64,000 nt of DNA from Dictyostelium discoideum (taxonomy: Eukaryota): NCBI GenBank assembly GCA_000004695.1, contig CM000151.3:4320001-4384000 (forward strand). Direction: 5' to 3'. Below are positions 828 to 38,484 of the stretch, piece by piece. Each line of letters opens with the position of its first letter. The first letter of the stretch is position 1. The position numbers were made by a program, and so were the translations under genes. Below the pieces are notes generated by a model, which saw nothing but the letters and a program-made list of their open reading frames with translations, did no database searches and was not told the DNA's origin.

Positions 828-2705
828 TTAATTATTAATTGGTAAATAACCAGCACGTTTCTTATAACGAATATAACCATATGCTCCACCAGCAACAGTA
901 CCCAAGACAGCAACGATAATTAAGAAAACAGCCCAACCTGGTAATTTCTTATGAGATTGTTCTTTTGAATTAAATTTAATTGAGACAATACCATCATCAG
1001 AGACGGAAACAGAGTAATCTAAAGTGGTGGCTTGACCATTTGTAAGTGGAACGATGGTTGAGAAAGTACCAAGAGTGCTACCAGCACATGAGATGATTTT
1101 ATAGGAATCACCATCACTTGGATTGGTATCGGTGATATCCATGATAAGGGTACCATTGAGTACTAAATTACCGTCGACAGTGATAAGAGCGCCAGCATCG
1201 GTAGAGAGTGTCTCTGCGATGAAAATGGTGGATTCAGCATCCATTTCCAAGTTACCAGCAACAGCGAATTGTTCAGAGGTTTGATCCATATCCAAAACGG
1301 CACCACTTGTCATAATTAAATCACCATTGATAGTAGCGATGGATTGTGGATGAATTCTACCGGCGATCAAATCAACTGAGCCACCAATGATACCACTATC
1401 AATACCAATGTATGAGTCTTTATCCAATGTATCGATTGAACCAAAAAAATTGACTTGATTGAATGCAAGATTACCTAAAAGATTAATTGGATATTTTCGA
1501 ACCCAAGAATCGAATGGACCATTCAAAGTGTTCATTGAGGCATCACTGAAAACGATTTGAGTGAGATTGGTGGAGATGTAACCCAATGAATTGCCACCAT
1601 CAAATTGAACGCTTGGAGTTGGTTGATGGTCTGGATTGATTACAAATGATGATTGTTTATCAGTTAAATGACCAAATGTACAATTTTGAACAAATAGATT
1701 CAAACCACCTGCAACAGTTACACTAATACCCACTGAATTAACATTCCATAAATAACATTCGGATTCAACATTACCTTGCTTGTTGATGTCAAATGTGATT
1801 TGACCATTACCTTGGACACCATTTGCGAAGTTTCCTTTTGGATGGAAACAAATTAAGTTGGCATTTTGTAAGTTAATGCTTGGGAAGTTTGCTGATGCTG
1901 AACCAGAGATGGTGAGATTAGCATTGGTGACCTTGATACTTGGATTACCAGTGTATTTGAATGAATCTGCAATGGTAAGAGCACCACCTTGAACGATGAT
2001 ATCATCATTGAGTGTGACAATCTCCAAATTGGATTGACCATAGAATGTGGTTGGACCAACAATGACTCTATCGTCGGAATTGATACCTGCATTGAAGAAA
2101 CATTCGTTGGCAGTTAAAATTGAATTATCAGTGAATGTTACAGTGGTCCAAAATTGAGCGACACCATTGATTAAAACATTTGAGAATGATTGTGCAGAGA
2201 ATTGGGAGTTTTGATCAGTGAAAATATCTTTAAATTGAAGAATTGAATAGGATGCTTGCATTGTGGATCCGAAAAGTAAGAATTTACCATTAACCTCAAC
2301 ATCATAACCAAATTGAGTGATATTGTTACTCTTTTCATTGTCAAATACAATTGTTGCACTATTGTTACCTGTGAACCCACCTGTCACTTGCATGTTGGTG
2401 TTTTGGAATGATACTACAACATTGACTGCACTTGTACCAACGATATTAATACTTGTGAATATGTTATTGATACCAGAAGCTACAATGAAAACTTGTTTAT
2501 TAGCGTTGGTAACCTTGGTGAAATCAATTACAACATTACTATTATTACTTGGAACTGCTCCTTGTTGCCAATTTGTTGGATCTGTGAATCTACATGGATT
2601 TTCTTGTGCACCACATAATGTTGGATCAAATGCAAAATTAAATGTTTGTGCTGAAATAATTCCAATAAAACAAATTAAAACTAATAATAATTTTATAATA
2701 TTCAT
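828..2705 (-). CDS. Type I membrane glycoprotein with a signal peptide, an N/T/G-rich repetitive ectodomain that may form a beta-helix, a C-terminal TM helix and a short basic tail. Function unknown.
   Basis: ORF-track 625-aa ORF. The N-terminus MNIIKLLLVLICFIGIISAQ is a typical signal peptide. The ectodomain has many N-x-S/T sequons and short repeated strand-like segments (NANLTISGSAS, VNVVVSF and similar). The C-terminal hydrophobic helix is WAVFLIIVAVLGTVAGGAYGYI, followed by RYKKRAGYLPINN. No catalytic motif recognised. Confidence 0.7.
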   Translation of the reverse strand: MNIIKLLLVLICFIGIISAQTFNFAFDPTLCGAQENPCRFTDPTNWQQGAVPSNNSNVVIDFTKVTNANKQVFIVASGINNIFTSINIVGTSAVNVVVSFQNTNMQVTGGFTGNNSATIVFDNEKSNNITQFGYDVEVNGKFLLFGSTMQASYSILQFKDIFTDQNSQFSAQSFSNVLINGVAQFWTTVTFTDNSILTANECFFNAGINSDDRVIVGPTTFYGQSNLEIVTLNDDIIVQGGALTIADSFKYTGNPSIKVTNANLTISGSASANFPSINLQNANLICFHPKGNFANGVQGNGQITFDINKQGNVESECYLWNVNSVGISVTVAGGLNLFVQNCTFGHLTDKQSSFVINPDHQPTPSVQFDGGNSLGYISTNLTQIVFSDASMNTLNGPFDSWVRKYPINLLGNLAFNQVNFFGSIDTLDKDSYIGIDSGIIGGSVDLIAGRIHPQSIATINGDLIMTSGAVLDMDQTSEQFAVAGNLEMDAESTIFIAETLSTDAGALITVDGNLVLNGTLIMDITDTNPSDGDSYKIISCAGSTLGTFSTIVPLTNGQATTLDYSVSVSDDGIVSIKFNSKEQSHKKLPGWAVFLIIVAVLGTVAGGAYGYIRYKKRAGYLPINN

Positions 2706-2794
2706 TTTTTGATTTATTTATTTTTTTTTTTTTTTCCCTCTTTTTATTCTTTAATTATACACAAAGAAAAAAATAAAAATAAAAAATTTTTAAG

Positions 2795-2825
<31 letters not shown>

Positions 2826-2858
2826 GAGTGAATGATTGATTTTATTTAAAAAATTTCG

Positions 2859-2889
<31 letters not shown>

Positions 2890-3023
2890 AAATTTTTTTT
2901 TTATTTTTAAAATATCTATATTTTCCCAGGCAACCATAATTGATAAAATTCCCAATTACCTCGACTTTTTGATTACAAAAGAAAACACAAACCTTTATTA
3001 TTAATAGAAAAATTTAGTTATAA

Positions 3024-3059
<36 letters not shown>

Positions 3060-4544
3060 ATTTAAATATATTATATATAATCAAGAAAGAAATACATATT
3101 CTTTAATTCCATCATATATTATAAATTACATGTACCCAAAATAATAATGATGATAATAAAATAAAAAATAAAAAATAAAATAAATAATTGAATAATTCCT
3201 AAATTAATTTTTTTTATATTCGTTAGTTTTTTTTTTTTTTTTTTTAATAAATTTCTAGTATTGGTTAAATGTATTGGGTGGTAATTTTATAGTTATAATT
3301 GAACAATTGAGGAAAAATATAACCATTTAAATTAATATATATATATATATATATATAAATTTTCTTTTTTTTTTAATTAATGTGTTTTTTTTAAAAAAAA
3401 AAAAAAATAAAAAAAAAAAATCAACAAAGAACATAAAACAGTTTGACATTTTTCCTTTTATAAAAAAAATCTTAATTTAAATTATTATAATAAACATCAA
3501 AAACAGAAAAATGGATTAAAGACTGGATTATCAATTTTTTTTCATTGAAAACTCTTTTTTTTTTTTGTTTTTTGTTTTTTTTTTTTTTTTATTTTTTTTT
3601 CATTTTATTTTTTTTTTTTTTATTTTTTTTTTTTAATTAATTCTACATAAAAATTTTTTTTTTTCTTTTCATTATTTTTTTTTCATTCTTTTCGAAAAGA
3701 TTTTTATAAATCATATAATATCTTCATACTCTGGTTTCGCAGATTAAAAAAAAAATAAAAAAAAAATAACAAACAAATAATAAATAAATAACAAGGAATT
3801 AATTAAAATAAATAAAATAAAATAAAATAAAATAAAAACAACTCATTCAACTAATAGATAAATAAAAAAAATACAACAAGAAAAAAAAATAAAAAAAAAA
3901 ATAAAAAAATAAAAAAAAATAAATAAAAAATAAAACTTTTTTTTGACTGTCTTTTATAAATAATATTATTATTTTTTTTTTTTTTTTTGAGTTTATTTTA
4001 TATCAAAGAAAAAAATAAAATAAAAAAAAAACCAAGTGTCTTTTATTCATATGTTTATAAATCACACACCACTCTAATTTGTTGTAAATTGAAAAAGAAA
4101 AATAAAAAATAAAAAAATAAAAAAAAAAAAATAAAAAATAAAAAATAAAAAAAAAAAACAAAAAACAAAATAAAACAAAAGCAAAAACATTTTTTATTTT
4201 TTATTTTATTTTTTCATCAATTATCACTATAAAGCTCAAAAAAGAAATAAAAAGAAATAAAAAGAAATAAAAAAAAAAGAAAAAAAAGAAAAAAAAGAAA
4301 ACAAAAAAAAAAAAAAAAAAAAAATCAATAAAGAAAAAAAAAAAAAAAAATAAATCATTAAAAAATATTTTCAAAGTCAAACAAATAAAGTTCACCACCT
4401 TAATGATTACTACTAATAGAATTAATTATAATTTTCAACAACTTCATACACACACAATTATTACAAATAATTTTCATTTCCACCAAAAGAAAAATAAACT
4501 AATTATAACACCAAGATTATAAATAAAAAAAAAAAAATAAAAAA

Positions 4545-5835
4545 ATGTCAAGCACACCAAATAATAATAATAATAATAAGTAAGTATATTTCATGTTAAA
4601 AAAAAAAAAAAAAAAAAAAATAAATAAGTAAAATAATAAAAACTCATATTAATCTTTTTTTTTCTTCTCACCAAAATTTATTTATTTTATTATTTAAATA
4701 GGGCAGAAAATCAAGCCGATTTCGTAGATGAAGAAGAATGGGCATTTGTAGATCTATGGGATAAATATGATCAAAATCTTTTAGAGAGATTTTGGAATGA
4801 ATTAGTTAAAACAACTTTTAACACTTCAGATATTCAGCCATTGAACGATTGGAATAAAGCAATGTCACCAGAGGCTCATAATAATCCTGATATTCCAGAT
4901 TTACACATATTATTAGCTTTTAAAGCAAGTGATTTGGAAACAATTAAAAATTCAACAGAGGCATTTACAACTACAAATACCTCACCAAGAAATACTTCCA
5001 CAGGTGATAGCAATACAAATACATTTAATACTGGTGGTAGCGGTAGTAGTGGCAATAGTACAACAAATACAACCCCTACTACACCAATTATAGTTACAAC
5101 ATCAAATAGTATTAATATACCAACTAAATTAACCTCATCAACAAGTAGTACATTGATACCAACAGCTATACCAGTTGCAACTCCAACAACTCCAACAACT
5201 CCAACAACAACAGCAACCCCAGCAATTCCAACAACAACAACAACAACACCAAAATCACCAATTTCAGATGACTTGGAATTGTCATCATCATCTTCTTCAA
5301 CTATGAGTAGTATTGATTCAAATTCAACATCATCATCAGCTGTAATTAGTCCAACACCAATTCCATTCATCAATACAAGCACAAACATTTCATCATCACC
5401 ATCTTCAACAATTGTTAGTACTCTAGGTAAAGTAACACCACCACAGATTTTAAATAATCGTACTCAAATTATTGCTGGTGTAATTTTTGAATATTATTCA
5501 AATATTAATTGTGGTTTATTTTTACATATGATTATTCAAAAAAAATTTAGAAATATGGTAAGTAAAAATTTAAATAATTTTTTTGTTGTTTTTTTTTTTT
5601 TTTTTAAAATAAATATTAAATTTTTTTTTAATTTATTACTATTATTTTTAGGGATTAGAAGGATTATTAGTTAAAAGAGCAATTGAAATTTTAGATAAGA
5701 ATGCACATTCTCATGGTCATTTAGCAGGTTGTAATGCAATTTTCTTTGAAACTAAATCAGCATCAAATCCAGCTGGTACCAGTACCAGTACCAGCACCAG
5801 TACTAGTACTAGTACTAATTCTAGTGGTAGTAGTA

Positions 5836-5934
<99 letters not shown>

Positions 5935-8900
5935 GTAATAATAATACTTTATGTGTATCTACAAGTGGTGGAAGTAGTCATCAAGATATTAATAAAATTG
6001 ATCCAAGACAACAACATTCAATTTTACATAAGATTGGATTTAGATTAGTAGATTTTGATTATACAAAACTACCATTAAAGAGATTAGGTAAATCAAATAA
6101 TCTCCTATTGACAGTTTATCTTTCGCCACATATACCATCACAAAGTAGTTTAGATGGTGATAAATATTATTTACCATCAGTATTATTAAAGAATTTCGTA
6201 TATGACCTTTGGGATACATCTTATTTGACAGAAAAAGTTAATAGAAAACCAGATGAAGATCCAGAATATGGAAGAGCATTGGAACAAATCGAATTACGTG
6301 AAAAGATACCATTGTTAGATTTACCATGGGGTGCAGGTAAACCATGGACATTAGTTGACCTCTATGAGGATTATGATGAAGAATTATTGGAACGTTGTTA
6401 TAGAGAAGTCATGGTACCAAGTGTGAAACATAGTGAAATTCCTTCACTTGGTAACGTTTTAAGGGCAATGTCTCCCGAGGGTGATGATTCATCCTATCTA
6501 CCAGATGTTCATGTCCTTTTAGCAGTACGTTGGCCAACTGATTTCCATAAGGATGGCAATTCATCATCGCCAATCATCGATGGTCTTTGTGTTTTCGAAT
6601 ATCATACCGAACAAAATTGTGGAATACTCACTCATTTAATTTTACAAAAAAAGAATAGAACATCATTGAATGATGGTTTGGATAGTTTATTAGTGGATAG
6701 TGCCGTAGATATCCTTGATACCAATGCAAGAGAACGTGGTAATTTGGCAGGTTGTAATGCAATTTTCATTCATATTAAAAATGCCCCAACTTCACCAGTT
6801 AGTCCAGATGTTGTTGATATTTGTCAACATCATATGGTATTATATAAAATGGGATTCAAACTTTTAGACTTTGATTTCTATATACCACCATTGGATTTTC
6901 ATTCAGCACCAAAGAAAATGATGTTAGGTTTATTCATTACACCATTGATCCCAAAATCAAATGAAAAAGGTGATCGTCCATTCATTCCATCAAATCTATT
7001 GAAATTATTTGTTGAACTTCAATGGAATAATGCTTTTGGTTCAGAACAAATTAAGAATTCACCAAATACCTACTTGGAATATCAACGTATGATTGAACAA
7101 ATAGAATTACGTGAACGTATTTCATTATCGGATTTACCATGGGATGCAGGTAAACCATGGACATTGGTTGATCTATGGGAAGATTATGATCAAGAGTTAT
7201 TGGAACGTCTATACAAAGAGATTATGATACCAAACTTTTCAAATAAACACGAATTGGAACCATTGGATAATTGGTTACAAGCATTTACTTCAGAGAATCG
7301 TGATGATCCAAACATTTCCGATCTTCATATACTATTGGCACTTAGATGGAGCGATAATAGTTCACAACCAATCATTGAGGGTGTTATCATCTTTGAATAT
7401 TTCTCTGCAAATAATTGTGGTCTATTAACTTATTTAATCGTTCAAAAAACATTTAAAGGTAAAGGTTTGGATAGAATCCTCGTGGAAACAGCAATTGAAA
7501 TCCTAAATCAAAATGCAAAGAGTCAAGGTTTCCTTCCAGGTTGTAATGCAATCTTTTTGGAGGTTTACAGTGGTGAAAAGGTAACTTTGAAACAAGATGT
7601 AGTCGATCCACGTATGAGACATTCCATCTATCATCAAATTGGATTTAGATTGATAGATTTCGAATATGTTGCACCACCATTAGCTTTGACTTATCCAAAG
7701 TTAAAACATTTCCTTCTCACAGTTTATCTTACCGAACATATTCCAAAGATGCCATTGGAGGAGGGCAAATATTATTTACCAAGTAGCGTTTTAAAGAATT
7801 TTATCACCGTCCTTTGGAAGAATGCAATTGCAACCAAGAAAATCATTAAACAACCACAAAGAGATTCAGATTATGTTAGAATGGTCGAACAGTTTGAGTA
7901 TCGTGAAAAAATACCATTGTTAGATTTACCATGGGGTGCAAGTAAACCATGGACATTGGTTGATCTTAGAGACGATTATGATGAGGATCTTATGGTACGT
8001 TTTTACAATGAGTTGATGTTACCAAATTTCCCAGTGAAAAATGAATTGGAACCATTATCAAATTTCATTAGTGCTCTCTCTGAAGAGAGAAGAGAATCAT
8101 TCAATCCACATTTATCAGAGGTTCATGTTTTATTGGCATTGAGATGGCCAACCGATTCATCCGATTTACAACCAACCATTGGTGCTGGTATTATTTTCGA
8201 ATATTTTTCAAATACCAATTGTGGTTTACTTTCCTATTTGGTGGTACATCGTTCTTCAAGAGGTCAAGGTTTGGCTGGTATTTTGGTTGAACGTGCAGTG
8301 GAACTATTGGATAAACATGCAAAAACTCGTGGTCAATTGGCTGGTTGTAACTGTATTTTCTTGGAAACCAATTCTGCTGAAAAAGTAACCGTACAACAAG
8401 ATGTTATGGATCCACGTATGAGACATACTATCTATTATAAAATGGGTTTCAGAATGATCGATTTCGAATATATTATGCCACCACTTTTTCAAGGTTTTGA
8501 AAAATTACGTGGTGTACTCTTATTGACAGTTTATTTAACTCCTCATATTCCCTATCAAGATGTCAATGGCAAGAAACAATACTATCTACCAAATGTTTTA
8601 TTAAAGAATTTCATCTCTTCACAATGGGAGAATGCATTCCGTAATTCACGTCTCTCTGTTAGACCAAGTCAAGATATCGATTTCACAATGTCATTGGATC
8701 AATTGGAGATTAGAGAACGTGTACCACTATTGGATTTACCATGGGGTGATGGTAAAGATTGGATGATAGTTGACCTTTGGGAAGATTATGATCAAGAGTT
8801 ATTGGATGCTTTCTATAAAAAGTATATGATCACTCAGTTTGGTACTTCCGATGAATTAGAACCATTAGAGAATTGGCATAAAGCTCTCTCAACCGAGGGT

Positions 8901-29075: not shown

Positions 29076-32710
<3,635 letters not shown>

Positions 32711-32899: not shown

Positions 32900-35200
32900 A
32901 AAAATAAATGACCATATACAGGGGAAAAAAAAAAATTTGATTAGTTTTATGATAAATTAATTGATCAATAATAGATGTTTATTAGTTTTTTTTTAATATT
33001 TTAAAATGATAAATGACATTTTAATATTTCCCCAGTATTCCAACTCCAGATTCCAATTTTTTTAATAAAATGGGATAAAATATTTTTTTTTTTTTTTGAT
33101 ATAAATAAACTATTGTAGTATACAATTAGTATGTTATTTTTATTTATTTATTTTAGGTTTTTTAGTTTTTGTGAATTTAAAATGGTATGTTATTTTAGAT
33201 TAGGTAATTAATAATTAATTGGTGGTGTAATTGTTGGAATTGGTTCATTAGTGTTTATGCTCCATTCTTTTTTAAATTTTTTGATGGTTTCGGACCATTG
33301 GGTTTCTTTTTGAGTTTTTGTGAGGTTGTTTTTAATTGAGTATTGGTTAAAGTTTGATAAAGTTCTTGAATATTCCAATCTTATTAGCTTGTGCCATTTT
33401 GATTTTAATATATCATAATCTAGTGTTGTGTTGTTTATTTGGTTGTTCCAATTATCAATTGATTGAGTTATATTGATGTCAAATAATGATTTGCATAACC
33501 ATATCCATATTTGGTGAATAACTAATGAGATTATGTTCCAATATGCATGTGTTCTGACTAGATCAAGATTTGTGTTTATATAATTCCAGTTGAACCTGTA
33601 TTTTTTATATTGTGCGTTTTCTGCAAAATGAAAATTAATATTGATAGTTGGATCTGGTTTAAATGCTTTGTTGTTTGTTTGTGGTTTATAGATGAGTGTG
33701 TATAATTTTGTTGTATGGTTTTTTGTTAGTGACCAGTTTTTGTTTCCATTGCAATTTTTATATATAAAATATTTTAATTTGTCGTGGTTAATGAAGTTGA
33801 TTGTGTGCTGACAATTGAAAAACAAATGACCATAGGGATCATTATTCATTTCATTGTTGCAAATGGGGCAAACTTTGTTGTGTAGATGATTAATCGGAAG
33901 ACATCTAGCATGGAATCTTTGCATTGTATCTCGGCCTTTTGGATCTTTTAATTTTTGAATTTTGACAAAAAGTTGGTCGTATGTGTATTTCCATAATAGT
34001 TGTATTGATTGTTGGTGCGAAGTAAGAAGTAGATCTGAATATTTCTTGCCAATATAGTCTTTTGATTTGCATTGGTGATTGTTTAGTATTGTCGAGTAGA
34101 TTTCTTTGAGTGTTGGTGGTAGTGAAATATTATTTGTGTTTAATGTTTGAGAGGGTTGGTTTTTTGTTAATATTGGTTGTAGGATTTGAACTTTATCTTT
34201 TAGATGTCCAATTTGAGTTGCATAGTTTTCCCATTCTTTTTTTATTTTTATAAGGTATGGAGAAGAGATTGATTTGTTGATGATTTGATCCATCCAACTT
34301 ATCATGTATATTGAATTGTTTGCAGATTTATGCATTTGTAAGAATCTGTTGTATATCCAAATCTTTTGAGCAACTTGACGTAATTGTATATTCCACATAC
34401 CCCAACCACCTTCTTTTAATGGTTTTAATGATCTATCATAACACATCAAAGGTATTTTTGCACGTGAATGGATGGTTGATGTGTTGTTTTCAATGGAATT
34501 GGTATTGAGAGTTGGTGATTCAGAATTTGCGGGAGAATTCATAAACCATGAGATTAATTTATTAATTTGAATTTCTTCATCTTTTGTAAATTCTTCAAGG
34601 TATGATAAATATGTTATTGGTGATAGTGAGTAGGTGTTTATGATGGTTGTTTTTGTTTTTAATGTTGTACCACTAGTTTTCCATAGCACTAATGATTTAA
34701 ACAGTGTTTTCATTGTTTCTGGTAATTTCCTATGTAAACCATTATGATTAAAGAAATAGCCAAGAACTCTTTCTGATTGATCTTTTTTGGTTATTGGAAT
34801 TCTTTTTGATTGTGGAATGTTGTTTATTATGTGTTTATCAGTGATTTTGTGGGGGTTGATTTCTATTATTGCACTTTTGTCAAAATTTAAAGATGATGAT
34901 GTTGAAGCACAGAAATTATCGAAATGTTTGATTGATTGTTGTTGTTGTTCGTAGTTGATGTTGTATGTTGTAGAGTCGTCTGCAAATTGGGTAAATTTGA
35001 TTTTAATTTGTGGATTGGGTGAAATTGGTAATCCAATTATTGAATTGTCTGCATTTATTGTTCTTGCTAATATTTCAATTACAATTACAAATAAAGTGGC
35101 AAAAAAACCGAAAAAACAAAGAAATAAACGAGAATTTATACATATAATAAATAAATCACTGTTATATCTTCACCGCCACATTCATTCCTCTTAATTTTAC
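32900..35200 (-). mobile_element. 5'-truncated non-LTR (LINE-like) retrotransposon fragment of the tRNA-gene-targeted TRE type (TRE3/Tdd-3-like), oriented on the minus strand. Its 3' end with oligo(A) lies near 33095 and its truncated 5' end near 35150-35200. About 0.9 kb downstream of a tRNA-Gly gene.
   Basis: The minus-strand frame upstream of track ORF 33208..34713 stays open to about 35100 and encodes a reverse-transcriptase core: ...ATLFVIVIEILARTINADNSIIGLPISPNPQIKIKFTQFADDSTTYNINYEQQQQSIKHFDNFCAS...; the F-A-D-D stretch is the RT Y/FxDD box. This is followed by the track ORF, which contains a Cys/His cluster CPICNNEMNNDPYGHLFFNCQH typical of LINE ORF2 C-termini. No N-terminal part of ORF2 and no ORF1 lie upstream on the same strand, which indicates 5' truncation. 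An oligo(T) run on the plus strand at about 33095-33108 corresponds to an oligo(A) tail on the element strand. Family assignment is an inference from the proximity to a tRNA gene. Confidence 0.7.
33208..35100 (-). pseudogene. Truncated ORF2 of the TRE-like retrotransposon, comprising the reverse transcriptase C-terminal half plus a Cys-rich C-terminal domain. Lacks a 5' part and a start codon.
   Basis: See the mobile-element entry. The open frame from about 35100 to 33208 has an FADD motif and a CX2CX12HX4C-like cluster. An in-frame M appears only at 34713 (the track ORF start). Confidence 0.65.
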
Positions 35201-35251
35201 CCTTTTTTTGCTCAATAAAGCAAGGGCTATCGTCCTATATACTTTTCAACA

Positions 35252-36016
35252 ATGGCTGATGATCACTCAACTGAATTACAGTTAAATCATACAGATAACA
35301 ACACAACCAATACAAATAATACCTCCACAACCTCAACAACAAAAAACAAAAGTGCAAAAATCGACACACCTAAAAAACAAACCCCAACAAACCAACTCTC
35401 ACTAAACAAAGGACTTGATAATCAATTAGATATCATTGCACCTCCATCAATCACAAGACCACTCTCTTTCTTAGAAAAAAACAATAACACCATCAACATT
35501 AAGTGTTACTTTAATCAACCACACATCCGTGAAGAATTAACCTCAAAAGATGACACAAGAATTCAACAAATTCACAAAAACATTCACAAACTCTTCGAAG
35601 ATATACTGTCGCCATCAGCATTTAAAATAATTGGTGCAACTGCCTTCGTAAATTGCAACGTTGATAAATTAACTTCAATAATCAACCTTCAAAACCAACT
35701 TGCACTAAATATCGACAAACTCAACTATAGATTCGATATATCATCAAATGATTATGCAATCATTAAAACATTCATTAAAACGTACTCACCCAAACATGCA
35801 AACGATGCAATTACAAACAACCTCACTAAATTCACCAGTTGTACATCAATTGAATCATTTACTGTCACATACTCATATGCTGTTGCGTTTAAAAGTTACA
35901 TTATAACATATCATCTAATTGATCACACACACAACATTGTTGATCAAAAGATCGAACAACCATCTGGGATAAAATACATGAGAATCGATCCCTTGGTCTT
36001 TTTAAAAATAGACTAA
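35252..36016 (+). CDS. 254-aa N/T-rich ORF of unknown function that ends 7 bp from the 3' end of the tRNA-Gly gene. Possibly retroelement-derived (ORF1-like), or a host gene fragment.
   Basis: Track ORF MADDHSTELQLNHTDNNTTNTNNTSTTSTTKNKSAKIDTPKKQTPTNQ...KIEQPSGIKYMRIDPLVFLKID. It fills the roughly 870 bp between the truncated 5' end of the RT fragment and the tRNA, on the strand opposite to both. No motif recognised. Confidence 0.3.
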   Translation: MADDHSTELQLNHTDNNTTNTNNTSTTSTTKNKSAKIDTPKKQTPTNQLSLNKGLDNQLDIIAPPSITRPLSFLEKNNNTINIKCYFNQPHIREELTSKDDTRIQQIHKNIHKLFEDILSPSAFKIIGATAFVNCNVDKLTSIINLQNQLALNIDKLNYRFDISSNDYAIIKTFIKTYSPKHANDAITNNLTKFTSCTSIESFTVTYSYAVAFKSYIITYHLIDHTHNIVDQKIEQPSGIKYMRIDPLVFLKID

Positions 36017-36023
36017 AATTTTA

Positions 36024-36094
36024 TGCGTATGCTGGGAATCGAACCCAGTTCGCATCCGTGGCAGGGATGCATCATACCACTAGACCACATACGC
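36024..36094 (-). tRNA. tRNA-Gly (anticodon GCC), 71 nt, no intron.
   Basis: Reverse complement of 36024..36094: GCGTATG TG GTCT AGTGGTA TGAT G CATCC CTGCCAC GGATG CGAA CTGGG TTCGATT CCCAG CATACGC A. The acceptor stem has 7 perfect base pairs. The D-loop is AGTGGTA with the conserved GG. The anticodon stem CATCC/GGATG has 5 bp. The anticodon loop C-U-GCC-A-C has U33, anticodon GCC and A37. The variable loop is 4 nt. The T-arm is CTGGG-TTCGATT-CCCAG (T-psi-C-G-A consensus). Confidence 0.85.
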
Positions 36095-36639
36095 TATTTT
36101 GATATTTTTCGATAAACAAAAGCAGTAATCGTTCGTTACAGTAATTATTTATTAAAATTTTTTATAATTAATCATAAATAGTTTATTAGGAAATTAGATA
36201 TTCTTTTAGCAAATTATGTCAACTCTTTATATAGTATAAAATGTAAATTATAATATTATTGTTGACTCAACAATATAAATATTTTTAATTAATTAAATAA
36301 ATAAATAAATTAAACTCATAAATAAACAAACAAATAATTAAAATTTAATAAATATTAAATTAAATTAAATTATTAAGGTTAAATAAAATGAATATATAAA
36401 TAAATATAAATAAATAAATTAAACTAATAAATAAATAAAATTCATATAAGTCCTTCTAGAGTATACCACTTCCGTTACATTCGTCAAAAATATTTAAAAG
36501 CAGTTTTTTTCAAAATTTTATTTTAAAGGATTATTAAATGAATAAATTTTAAATAAGATTATAGTCATGAATCCAAGCAATTCAACTAAAATGTAAACAT
36601 AAAAATATTAAATTAAAATGAATAATATAATTTTTATTT

Positions 36640-38484
36640 TTAAACATTATTATCTAATTCTGGAGCATCGTTATTTTTATCAAGCACAGAAATATGATCG
36701 ATATGGCTTGAACTTGATGGACATGTATGAGGATTATCACACGATGTTTGATTAGAGAATAATCCTTCAACTGATTCTCCATATTCGTATTCTATTATAT
36801 CTGATAAATAATTACCATTTACATTATTATTGTTATTTATACTATTGTTACTAACATTACCATTATTTGGAGATTTAAGATTTTCAAAATACAATTTAAT
36901 ATTTTTCCTAAAAATGGCCACCAAAATAAATATAGAAATTGTAATTGAACAAATCAAAACTGGAACAATTATTTTTTTAATCAAATCACCTCTATCAAAT
37001 TTATGAATTTTATTATTTTTTGTTACTAAATCATCGCTGTTTTCACTATTGTCAAAAAGATTAACTATACATTTTAAACAATCTTTTTTAAACTTTTCTA
37101 AATTTAAATTTAATGATGAATATTTATCAATGGTTATTAAATTATTTGTTCCTTTGATTGTTGTTTGAGTATCAATTCTTGAATTTGATTTTAAATCAAT
37201 AAAACCATTATCCATTATAATTGCACTTGAAAATTGATTTGGAATTGTTGAATTTTTAAATTTTATTTCATAAGATTTATCAATTGATAGAAAGGACATT
37301 TTTCCATTTATTGTATTATTTGAAATTATTGTATTTTCCAAAGATAAGTAAATTGATTCCATAATTTGAAATAATGAAATCGTTATAAAACTATTTGAAG
37401 ATTTTGAAATTATATTATTATTATTAAATAAACAATTCCTAAATATATTCGGATCCCTTGGTTGTGAGGGTCTTTTTGGGAAATATCCTTTAAAAAATGT
37501 CGATATTTTATTATTTGTAAATTGTAAATTATAAAATTGAATTACAAACCCATTCATATTAACTATTGGTAAATCCTCATTTGTTATCAATTCAATATTG
37601 TTAATAATGGAATTTTCCATTACTAAAGTTGACATTGTTAAATAAAATGGTGAATAAACCAATTTCATATTATCCAAAACTGTATCTACAAAACTAATAT
37701 TATTAAAATACATATAAAACAAAGGTGTTTGATATTGATTCGTAACATTTGCAAAATGACAATCTTTAAAAATAAAATTTGCAGGTAAATCACCCTCTGT
37801 ATAGTTTGCTTCTACAGACTCAATAAATTTAAAAGAACCAGTAGTTGTTATTGATGAAAAATAAAAATCTAAAGAATGATAAGGTTTATTTAGTAATGAA
37901 TTTGAAAATACTAATGTTGAACTCCAATCTTTGAATAATAAATTATTAATTGATATTAATTTTTTATTACATAAAGTATTATTTTCAAATCCAACATATT
38001 TTATAAATGATCTTGAAACTGATTTCCCATCAATTATTAATAATGGTTTTTTCTTTATTTCTGACTCTTTGATTTTATTTCCATTAATATCTTGAAAATC
38101 AATATTAAAAGAACAATAATTTTTTAAATCTCCAAATGTTTTTTCACCAATTAAGTTTATTGTTGGTGATGTTTTATTTAGATCTATATTTAATATTAAT
38201 AAAACTAATGAAACTTGATTAATATGAGAAATATTTTCAAATAATTGCCTTGATCTTTCTCCAGCATCATAAAATGTTTTACAAGGTGGATAAATTTTTG
38301 TATCCAGATCAAAAATATTAATACTTCCTCCACATTCCATATTTTCATAATTAATTTTTGATAAAAAATCAATTTTTAAAACAATTTCCTTATCAACATT
38401 TTCACTGAACGATTTACATATATTTAAAAAACAAATAATTATTATTAAAATGATTATATATTGTTTTTTAGATTTTTTAATCAT
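36640..38484 (-). CDS. Type I membrane glycoprotein with a signal peptide, an N-rich ectodomain with many sequons, and a C-terminal TM helix. Function unknown.
   Basis: Track 614-aa ORF. The N-terminus is MIKKSKKQYIIILIIIICFLNICKSFS. The ectodomain is Asn/Ile/Phe-rich with numerous N-x-S/T. The C-terminal helix is IIVPVLICSITISIFILVAIF, followed by RKNIKLYFENLK and an N-rich cytoplasmic tail. Confidence 0.65.
   Translation of the reverse strand: MIKKSKKQYIIILIIIICFLNICKSFSENVDKEIVLKIDFLSKINYENMECGGSINIFDLDTKIYPPCKTFYDAGERSRQLFENISHINQVSLVLLILNIDLNKTSPTINLIGEKTFGDLKNYCSFNIDFQDINGNKIKESEIKKKPLLIIDGKSVSRSFIKYVGFENNTLCNKKLISINNLLFKDWSSTLVFSNSLLNKPYHSLDFYFSSITTTGSFKFIESVEANYTEGDLPANFIFKDCHFANVTNQYQTPLFYMYFNNISFVDTVLDNMKLVYSPFYLTMSTLVMENSIINNIELITNEDLPIVNMNGFVIQFYNLQFTNNKISTFFKGYFPKRPSQPRDPNIFRNCLFNNNNIISKSSNSFITISLFQIMESIYLSLENTIISNNTINGKMSFLSIDKSYEIKFKNSTIPNQFSSAIIMDNGFIDLKSNSRIDTQTTIKGTNNLITIDKYSSLNLNLEKFKKDCLKCIVNLFDNSENSDDLVTKNNKIHKFDRGDLIKKIIVPVLICSITISIFILVAIFRKNIKLYFENLKSPNNGNVSNNSINNNNNVNGNYLSDIIEYEYGESVEGLFSNQTSCDNPHTCPSSSSHIDHISVLDKNNDAPELDNNV

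Follow-up and report, generated by a model that had tools for sequence, protein, structure and literature searches.

TRE3-B, formerly called RED, is a tRNA-targeted retrotransposon of the L1 clade found in the amoebozoan Dictyostelium discoideum. In the mammalian L1 elements, 5' inversions reportedly arise through twin priming, a process that Ostertag and Kazazian are said to have described in Genome Research in 2001. The signature of a twin-primed L1 is a target-site duplication (TSD), an inverted 5' segment, a direct 3' segment ending in A(n) and the second copy of the TSD, with the inverted part derived from further 5' in the RNA. The inverted segment starts with microhomology to the end of the target, and the gap at the junction typically amounts to a few to tens of bases. 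Here we describe a locus that can be compared with both systems, located in a 64-kb stretch of the D. discoideum genome (GenBank assembly GCA_000004695.1, contig CM000151.3, positions 4,320,001 to 4,384,000; hereafter the window, with positions counted from its first letter). Within the window a tRNA-Gly(GCC) gene is followed by a TRE3-B copy whose 5' end is inverted, and we estimate a probability of roughly 85% that this copy results from a single TRE3-B integration in which the 5' end was inverted and ~2.4 kb were lost through L1-style twin priming.

TRE3 elements integrate 40-150 bp downstream of tRNA genes, sharing the tRNA's orientation and guided by an internal or external B box (PMC5911963); for TRE3-B the range of integration is 34-188 bp downstream (PMC5006619). 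The copy in the window occupies the same niche as Skipper-2 (DGLT-P), which inserts 8-23 bp downstream of D. discoideum tRNA genes (PMC5006619). Skipper-2, however, is a Ty3/gypsy element with long terminal repeats (LTRs), an integrase and a chromodomain, whereas the copy in the window has no LTRs and belongs to a family with an APE domain, RVT_1 and a poly(A) tail. The window copy shares 97-100% protein identity and 98-99.8% DNA identity with annotated TRE3-B copies, and resembles them in its oligo(A) tail, its short TSD and, judged from full-length relatives, a family architecture of two open reading frames (ORFs), ORF1 and an ORF2 with APE, reverse transcriptase (RT) and zinc-finger regions. 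It differs from them in not being collinear, the first ~868 nucleotides (nt) being inverted and nt ~869-3291 gone, and it appears in the annotation as two "genes" on opposite strands, DDB_G0274671 and DDB_G0274673, rather than as one 5'-truncated element.

A search of the window with ARAGORN detected one tRNA gene, tRNA-Gly(GCC) at 36024-36094 on the minus strand, which is the RNA polymerase III (Pol III) target of the insertion, with a T4 terminator run on the same strand at 36015-36018. The insertion is a composite of 2.9 kb. Read along the strand of the tRNA, the order is tRNA, TAAAATTTTAG (the terminator), ..GACCAAGGGATCGATTCTCATG, TATTTTATC(CCA), and then the inverted piece running from element nt 868 to nt 1; this is followed by the direct piece from nt 3292 to nt 5294, the A15 tail, TATTTTATC(CCA) once more and TTTTATTAAAAAAATTGG... 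Protein matches and blastn place the inverted 5' piece (element nt 1 to ~868) at 35101-35967 on the plus strand and the direct 3' piece (nt 3292-5294) at 33098-35100 on the minus strand. Element coordinates were set with nt 1 at window position 35101, by blastn against the copies at three other loci (here called L001, L002 and L004). In this comparison the inverted piece was 99.6-99.8% identical to L002 and L004 and 93.9% identical to L001.

The inverted piece holds the complete 5' end of the element, namely a 151-nt 5' untranslated region (UTR; 35101-35251) and ORF1 codons 1-238, which begin at 35252. Its start coincides with the TSD-defined 5' end of the near-complete TRE3-B copy in L001. 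Because that copy, bounded by its own TSD (TCATCATTTC), opens with the same A-run/CGAAAC..AAAGAAATAAACGAG, the 5' end of the element in the window is genuine. The direct piece encodes the C-terminal 630 aa of ORF2 in a minus-strand frame that is uninterrupted from position 35100 to the stop codon at 33208-33210 and carries ..ATLFVIVIEILARTI.., then ..FTQFADDSTTY.., and then a Cys/His-rich region; it thus covers the RT from the motif preceding FADD and the Cys/His zinc-finger. A 3' UTR of 110 nt (33098-33207) separates the stop codon from the A15 tail (T15 on the plus strand, 33083-33097, by direct reading), which stands where the poly(A) stands in L001 and in a further copy, L014. The two pieces are joined head-to-head at 35100/35101, with neither a filler base nor microhomology. 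Measured on L002, ~2.4 kb (nt ~869-3291) is missing, and with it the C-terminus of ORF1, the APE domain and the RT's N-terminal half. What remains is ORF1 as far as codon 238 and, of ORF2, the last 630 aa (part of the RT and the Cys/His region). Lacking these parts, this TRE3-B copy is dead.

Most of these parts had been noticed in an earlier reading of the same letters (hereafter the sequence-only reading). It had called the tRNA-Gly(GCC) gene, with which ARAGORN agrees, the RT F-A-D-D box and Cys/His-rich ORF2 C-terminus on the minus strand, an oligo(A) tail near 33095, and a 254-aa plus-strand ORF (35252-36016) that stops 7 bp short of the tRNA gene, and each of these is present. It had also held the RT fragment to begin ~0.87 kb downstream of the tRNA gene; the fragment is indeed downstream, but the break lies exactly at 35100, 923 bp from the tRNA gene. 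Its view that the element was of TRE3 type, placed downstream of the tRNA gene in the same orientation, was right and can be narrowed to TRE3-B. That the RT fragment might come from a non-TRE family such as an LTR element, which it had named as a reason to abandon this view, was not borne out, the element being a non-LTR TRE3-B.

The family identity of both pieces was established by comparison with other copies. The 254-aa ORF, annotated as DDB_G0274671, is 98% identical over residues 1-240 to a 402-aa D. discoideum Gag protein (UniProt Q9Y1H6; P0001 in our set), and the likeness ends abruptly after residue 240. Element sequence within this ORF is confined to 35252-35967; past that point the frame runs on for ~16 codons through the TSD and the external B box and into the terminator region of the tRNA. 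The extent of the ORF had been given correctly in the sequence-only reading, while its abutment on the tRNA gene comes from translation of the flank. That reading had also suggested a check on whether the ORF is multi-copy: its sequence is indeed multi-copy in the genome, as ORF1 of a TRE, and a host gene was rejected as its source on the 98% identity to the multi-copy Gag.

On the minus strand, the ORF at 33208-34713 (501 aa) is 100% identical to DDB_G0274673, a gene for which we found no mention in the searchable literature. The whole RT fragment has 99% identity with the last 630 aa of a 1058-aa ORF2 (P0008) and with many other copies. It is 97% identical to DDB_G0291686, which has the dictyBase product name "TRE3-B ORF2" (PMC12405889 Table 2) and shares a 90%-identity cluster with the closest matches of the fragment. 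The most abundant other cluster of TRE3-like ORF2 proteins (P0018), which represents the next-nearest family, has ~39% identity to the fragment. The reconstructed element is 5294 nt long, closer to the published consensus of TRE3-B (5279 nt) than to those of TRE3-A (5229 nt) or TRE3-C (4734 nt) (PMC5006619 Table 1), and this length therefore also supports TRE3-B. On these sequence comparisons, the two ORFs are read as two pieces, ORF1 and ORF2, of a single TRE3-B family; the family name is supported by the dictyBase product name quoted in PMC12405889, by identity to and clustering with that protein, and by the length of the element.

In L001 and L002 this Gag and this Pol are encoded by the same strand, as ORF1 and ORF2; ORF1 of L002 (402 aa) occupies 37-1245 and is overlapped by ORF2, which starts at 1242 in the -1 frame. 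A Pfam search of the two fragments in the window returned noise only, the RT fragment being too short for RVT_1, and the domains of the family were read from full-length relatives. The ORF2 of L002 matched Exo_endo_phos (APE; E=8e-13) and RVT_1 (E=1e-30), and because the family ORF2 has both an APE domain and RVT_1, the element is an L1-type non-LTR element and not an LTR element. The marks of TRE3-B that were found are sequence identity, a family architecture of two ORFs with APE-RT-zinc finger, distance, orientation, and an oligo(A) tail with a TSD. Two other families were considered and rejected, Skipper-2/DGLT for the absence of LTRs and the presence of an APE domain in the family and a poly(A) tail, and TRE5 for lying on the wrong side of the tRNA gene and being the wrong family.

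One indication that both pieces arrived together is that a single TSD of 9-12 bp, (TGG)GATAAAATA on the plus strand, encloses them, abutting the poly(A) at one end and exactly the end of element homology at the other. The tRNA-distal copy was read directly at 33071-33082, and the tRNA-proximal copy at 35965-35976 was read directly and by comparison with L002 and L004. The sequence-only reading had proposed looking for duplications at about 33090 and about 35200, of which the first was found, its partner lying at 35965-35976; there is none at 35100, and a separate TSD for either piece alone was not seen at the locus. When two random positions of the window were compared, allowing ±3 bp of slack on each side, repeats of at least 9 bp occurred in 0.5% and of at least 12 bp in 0.16% of trials. 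This, like the 98-99.8% DNA identity of the pieces to other TRE3-B copies, lies far outside chance. The TSD of the L001 copy, at least 10 bp long, is comparable. Within the duplication GATAAAATA is unambiguous target sequence, and TGG is common to target and element: the element consensus reads CATCTGG/TATCAC and the target AAATGG/GATAAAATA, giving a 3-nt microhomology (TGG) beside the inverted piece.

Empty sites point the same way. Orthologous loci were retrieved through the neighbouring gene for a 614-aa protein, and an empty site was found in a divergent D. discoideum assembly (L010), in D. cf. discoideum (L011), in D. citrinum (L012) and in D. dimigraforme (L013). Each has an identical tRNA-Gly(GCC) at the orthologous position, contiguous flanks and one copy only of the TSD homologue; TRE3-B sequence is absent at this locus from all four, both pieces missing together. 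The short-read (Logan) contigs that carry the 614-aa neighbour gene end inside the tRNA gene and gave no empty site. A second D. discoideum assembly, GCA_054883475.1, contains the identical composite, with 99.96% identity over 5.5 kb and no gaps. We favour a single event because one TSD brackets both pieces, with no separate TSD for either, and the empty sites are without both.

The position of the composite is that of a typical TRE3 insertion. The B-box pattern GGWTCGAWTC has two matches in the 64 kb (0.05 expected), both on the minus strand, and these are the internal B box of the tRNA-Gly gene (GGTTCGATTC, 36036-36045) and an external B box (exB; GGATCGATTC, 35982-35991), 33-42 nt past the 3' end of the tRNA; the sequence-only reading had suggested that such motifs be looked for. 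At the position of exB all four relatives have kept a B-box-like motif, which in D. dimigraforme reads GTTCGAATC, so that exB is conserved across them while the surrounding spacer has diverged. The composite starts 47-58 bp past the 3' end of the tRNA-Gly gene and 5-17 bp beyond exB, and the T4 terminator and both B boxes are intact after the insertion. The piece bearing the poly(A) (nt 3292-5294), which marks the orientation of target-primed reverse transcription (TPRT), shares the minus strand with the tRNA; only the 5' piece is inverted. In a control, a tRNA-Thr(AGU) gene is followed after 48 bp by the TRE3-B copy in L014, which is on the same strand, its 5' end proximal. Distance and orientation of the composite thus match the rules for TRE3 and count for a TRE3-B integration, and we infer from the literature (PMC5911963) that the insertion was probably targeted through TFIIIC/B-box recognition.

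Two of the copies used for comparison have features of their own. The copy in L014 (6848-11075; GCA_054883475.1, JBTAPE010000039.1) is a canonical TRE3-B in which nt 2005-2353 are inverted in place and several stretches are deleted. Its poly(A) is followed by a ATTCAAAAA repeat and then directly by a "mini" TRE3-B of ~40 nt, which consists of the first ~24 nt and the last ~15 nt of the element followed by poly(A), and a second tRNA-Thr(AGU) gene is found 1.6 kb upstream. The copy in L001 (5054-11441; GCA_054883475.1, CM142511.1) is near full-length, with its own TSD and an extra 1.13 kb at 7200-8329. It sits in the part of a polyketide synthase gene that codes for the N-terminus, directly next to the KS motif ..DVAVIGIG... 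Since ARAGORN detected no tRNA gene in the 19.3 kb of this locus, it is an apparent off-target insertion of a tRNA-targeted element.

The order of nicks and priming events that we infer for the composite follows the L1 scheme. The endonuclease of the element would nick the plus strand of the window between ..GATAAAATA and CATGAG.., and the exposed 3' OH would prime reverse transcription on the poly(A) tail (TPRT), this first cDNA stopping at element nt 3292. The minus strand would be nicked 9-12 bp away, so that its 3' end, ..TATC(CCA)-3', could anneal to UGG at nt ~866-868, in ORF1 of the same RNA. A second cDNA, primed at this UGG, would then extend to the very 5' end of the RNA, and the ends of both cDNAs would be joined bluntly. 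The expected product, a TSD, nt 868 to 1 inverted, nt 3292 to 5294 with A15, and the TSD again, with nt ~869-3291 lost, would have the arrangement found in the window.

Four of the five features by which twin priming is recognised were found. These include an inverted segment (nt 1-868) and a direct segment (nt 3292-5294) of the same family, the inverted one from further 5', a single TSD around both segments, and four orthologous empty sites without both. What the copy has in common with a twin-primed L1 is an inverted 5' segment beside a direct segment with poly(A), the derivation of the former from further 5', one TSD and microhomology with the target. It differs in host and element, this being an amoebozoan tRNA-targeted element rather than a mammalian L1, in that the second cDNA attained the true 5' end of the RNA, and in that the junction is blunt.

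Several points weigh against this explanation. The fifth feature, a small deletion at the junction, was not found: the uncopied gap between nt ~868 and nt 3292 is ~2.4 kb, far above the small deletions or duplications, of a few to tens of bases, that are typical of L1 twin priming. The microhomology (TGG) is just 3 nt and is weak support by itself, and the inversion junction has none. Neither an intermediate nor an event arising de novo was observed, and the second assembly that contains the composite (GCA_054883475.1) may not be independent of AX4. To our knowledge, twin priming has been experimentally shown for no TRE, and no paper in the searchable literature was found to connect TREs of Dictyostelium with twin priming or 5' inversions. 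The copy is an atypical variant, an inversion with a large deletion, which makes for a poorer textbook fit and leaves the mechanism uncontradicted.

Other histories could produce a similar arrangement. A full-length TRE3-B may have inserted normally, and recombination or repair may later have inverted nt 1-868 and removed nt 869-3291. Change after insertion does occur in the family, as the in-place inversion and deletions in the L014 copy demonstrate. Here, however, three breakpoints would be needed, two of them falling exactly at the 5' terminus of the element and at the boundary of the TSD, and the TGG microhomology at the tRNA-proximal end would be left unexplained. The pieces are otherwise almost unmutated (99-99.8% identity to other copies), and 630 codons of ORF2 have stayed open. 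We regard a later rearrangement as very unlikely.

Two independent TRE3-B events, an older 5'-truncated copy on the minus strand and then an ORF1-only or non-autonomous element nearer the tRNA gene, are a more improbable origin still. The sequence-only reading had suggested such a secondary insertion, or a captured sequence, on the argument that ~0.77 kb of ORF plus the usual integration distance of ~0.1 kb equals 0.87 kb; the sum is a coincidence, the actual integration distance of the composite being 47-58 bp. It is true that 61% of D. discoideum tRNA genes carry at least one TRE and that nested copies are common (PMC5006619), and the two pieces do lie on opposite strands. Yet the plus-strand piece is wrongly oriented for TRE3 and has neither a 3' end nor poly(A), a product that TPRT cannot make, and no ORF1-only derivative of TRE3-B was seen among the homologues of the 254-aa ORF. 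The two pieces, with ORF1 and ORF2 of the same family, meet base to base at 35100/35101 without filler, no TSD surrounds either one, a single TSD contains both, and both are absent from the orthologues.

A single event could also have involved template switching, in which the first cDNA, on reaching nt 3292, would jump to an antisense transcript or cDNA of TRE3-B at its 3' end, copy this template to nt ~868 and then be joined to the target by microhomology. Such a course would give the same final structure and TSD, and abundant antisense RNA is known from TRE5-A (PMC4559204). It would nevertheless demand that the antisense template end precisely opposite element nt 1, whereas twin priming needs just the RNA already on site, and we consider it extremely unlikely. 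That repeats led to two TRE3-B fragments being wrongly joined in the chromosome 2 reference of AX4 deserves next to no credence: TRE copies are near-identical repeats and the Logan short-read contigs break at the tRNA gene and within the element, but the second assembly has the same structure at 99.96% identity without gaps, and a precise TSD and an exact junction at the 5' terminus of the element are not expected from mis-assembly.

A single twin-primed insertion is thus the explanation that we carry forward. TRE3-B and its targeting of tRNA genes are well known, as is twin priming, and the locus is a fresh example rather than a new phenomenon; the feature is real, well explained and essentially an ordinary tRNA-targeted insertion with an unusual shape. 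It does lead to a correction of the AX4 annotation, in which the "hypothetical protein" genes DDB_G0274671 and DDB_G0274673 are halves of one dead TRE3-B copy, and the ORF abutting the tRNA gene is a read-through artefact, a truncated ORF1 running into the flank. It also provides a clean example of a 5'-inverted TRE insertion that is supported by empty sites. If general, twin priming would be a side reaction of TPRT common to mammalian L1 and amoebozoan tRNA-targeted elements, and copies of this kind would provide base-level data on the TRE3-B nick sites on both strands relative to exB.

A more far-reaching proposition has two parts. The first is that TRE3-B, as an L1-clade element of Amoebozoa, twin-primes and that this copy records a second-strand nick staggered by 9-12 bp together with the 3' end that primed on the RNA. 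The second is that the inverted module of 5' UTR and ORF1 (DDB_G0274671), which faces exB and the tRNA gene, could yield a truncated ORF1 protein or an antisense transcript modulating TRE3-B targeting or tRNA-Gly expression. That both should hold together seems to us very unlikely.

The remaining features of the region concern its setting. G+C content across the window ranges from 12 to 39%, and this composition and the protein matches assign the window to chromosome 2 of D. discoideum AX4. To the right of the tRNA gene, the neighbour at 36640-38484 on the minus strand is the ORF of 614 aa through which the orthologous loci were retrieved, with an N-terminal signal-like segment and a hydrophobic segment at the C-terminus. 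It has no Pfam annotation on record and matches only in close Dictyostelium relatives (78-94% identity), and for these reasons it looks like a lineage-restricted gene. To the left of the element, a long ORF at 29753-32710 on the plus strand contains cysteines of the FYVE type along with very long tracts of poly-Ser, poly-Asn and poly-Gln. The poly-Met ORF of 58 aa at 31914-32090 on the minus strand is the antisense of its poly-Ser tract and no gene. The orthologue of the long ORF in the divergent D. discoideum assembly (L010) has Pfam matches to RhoGEF, PH and FYVE.

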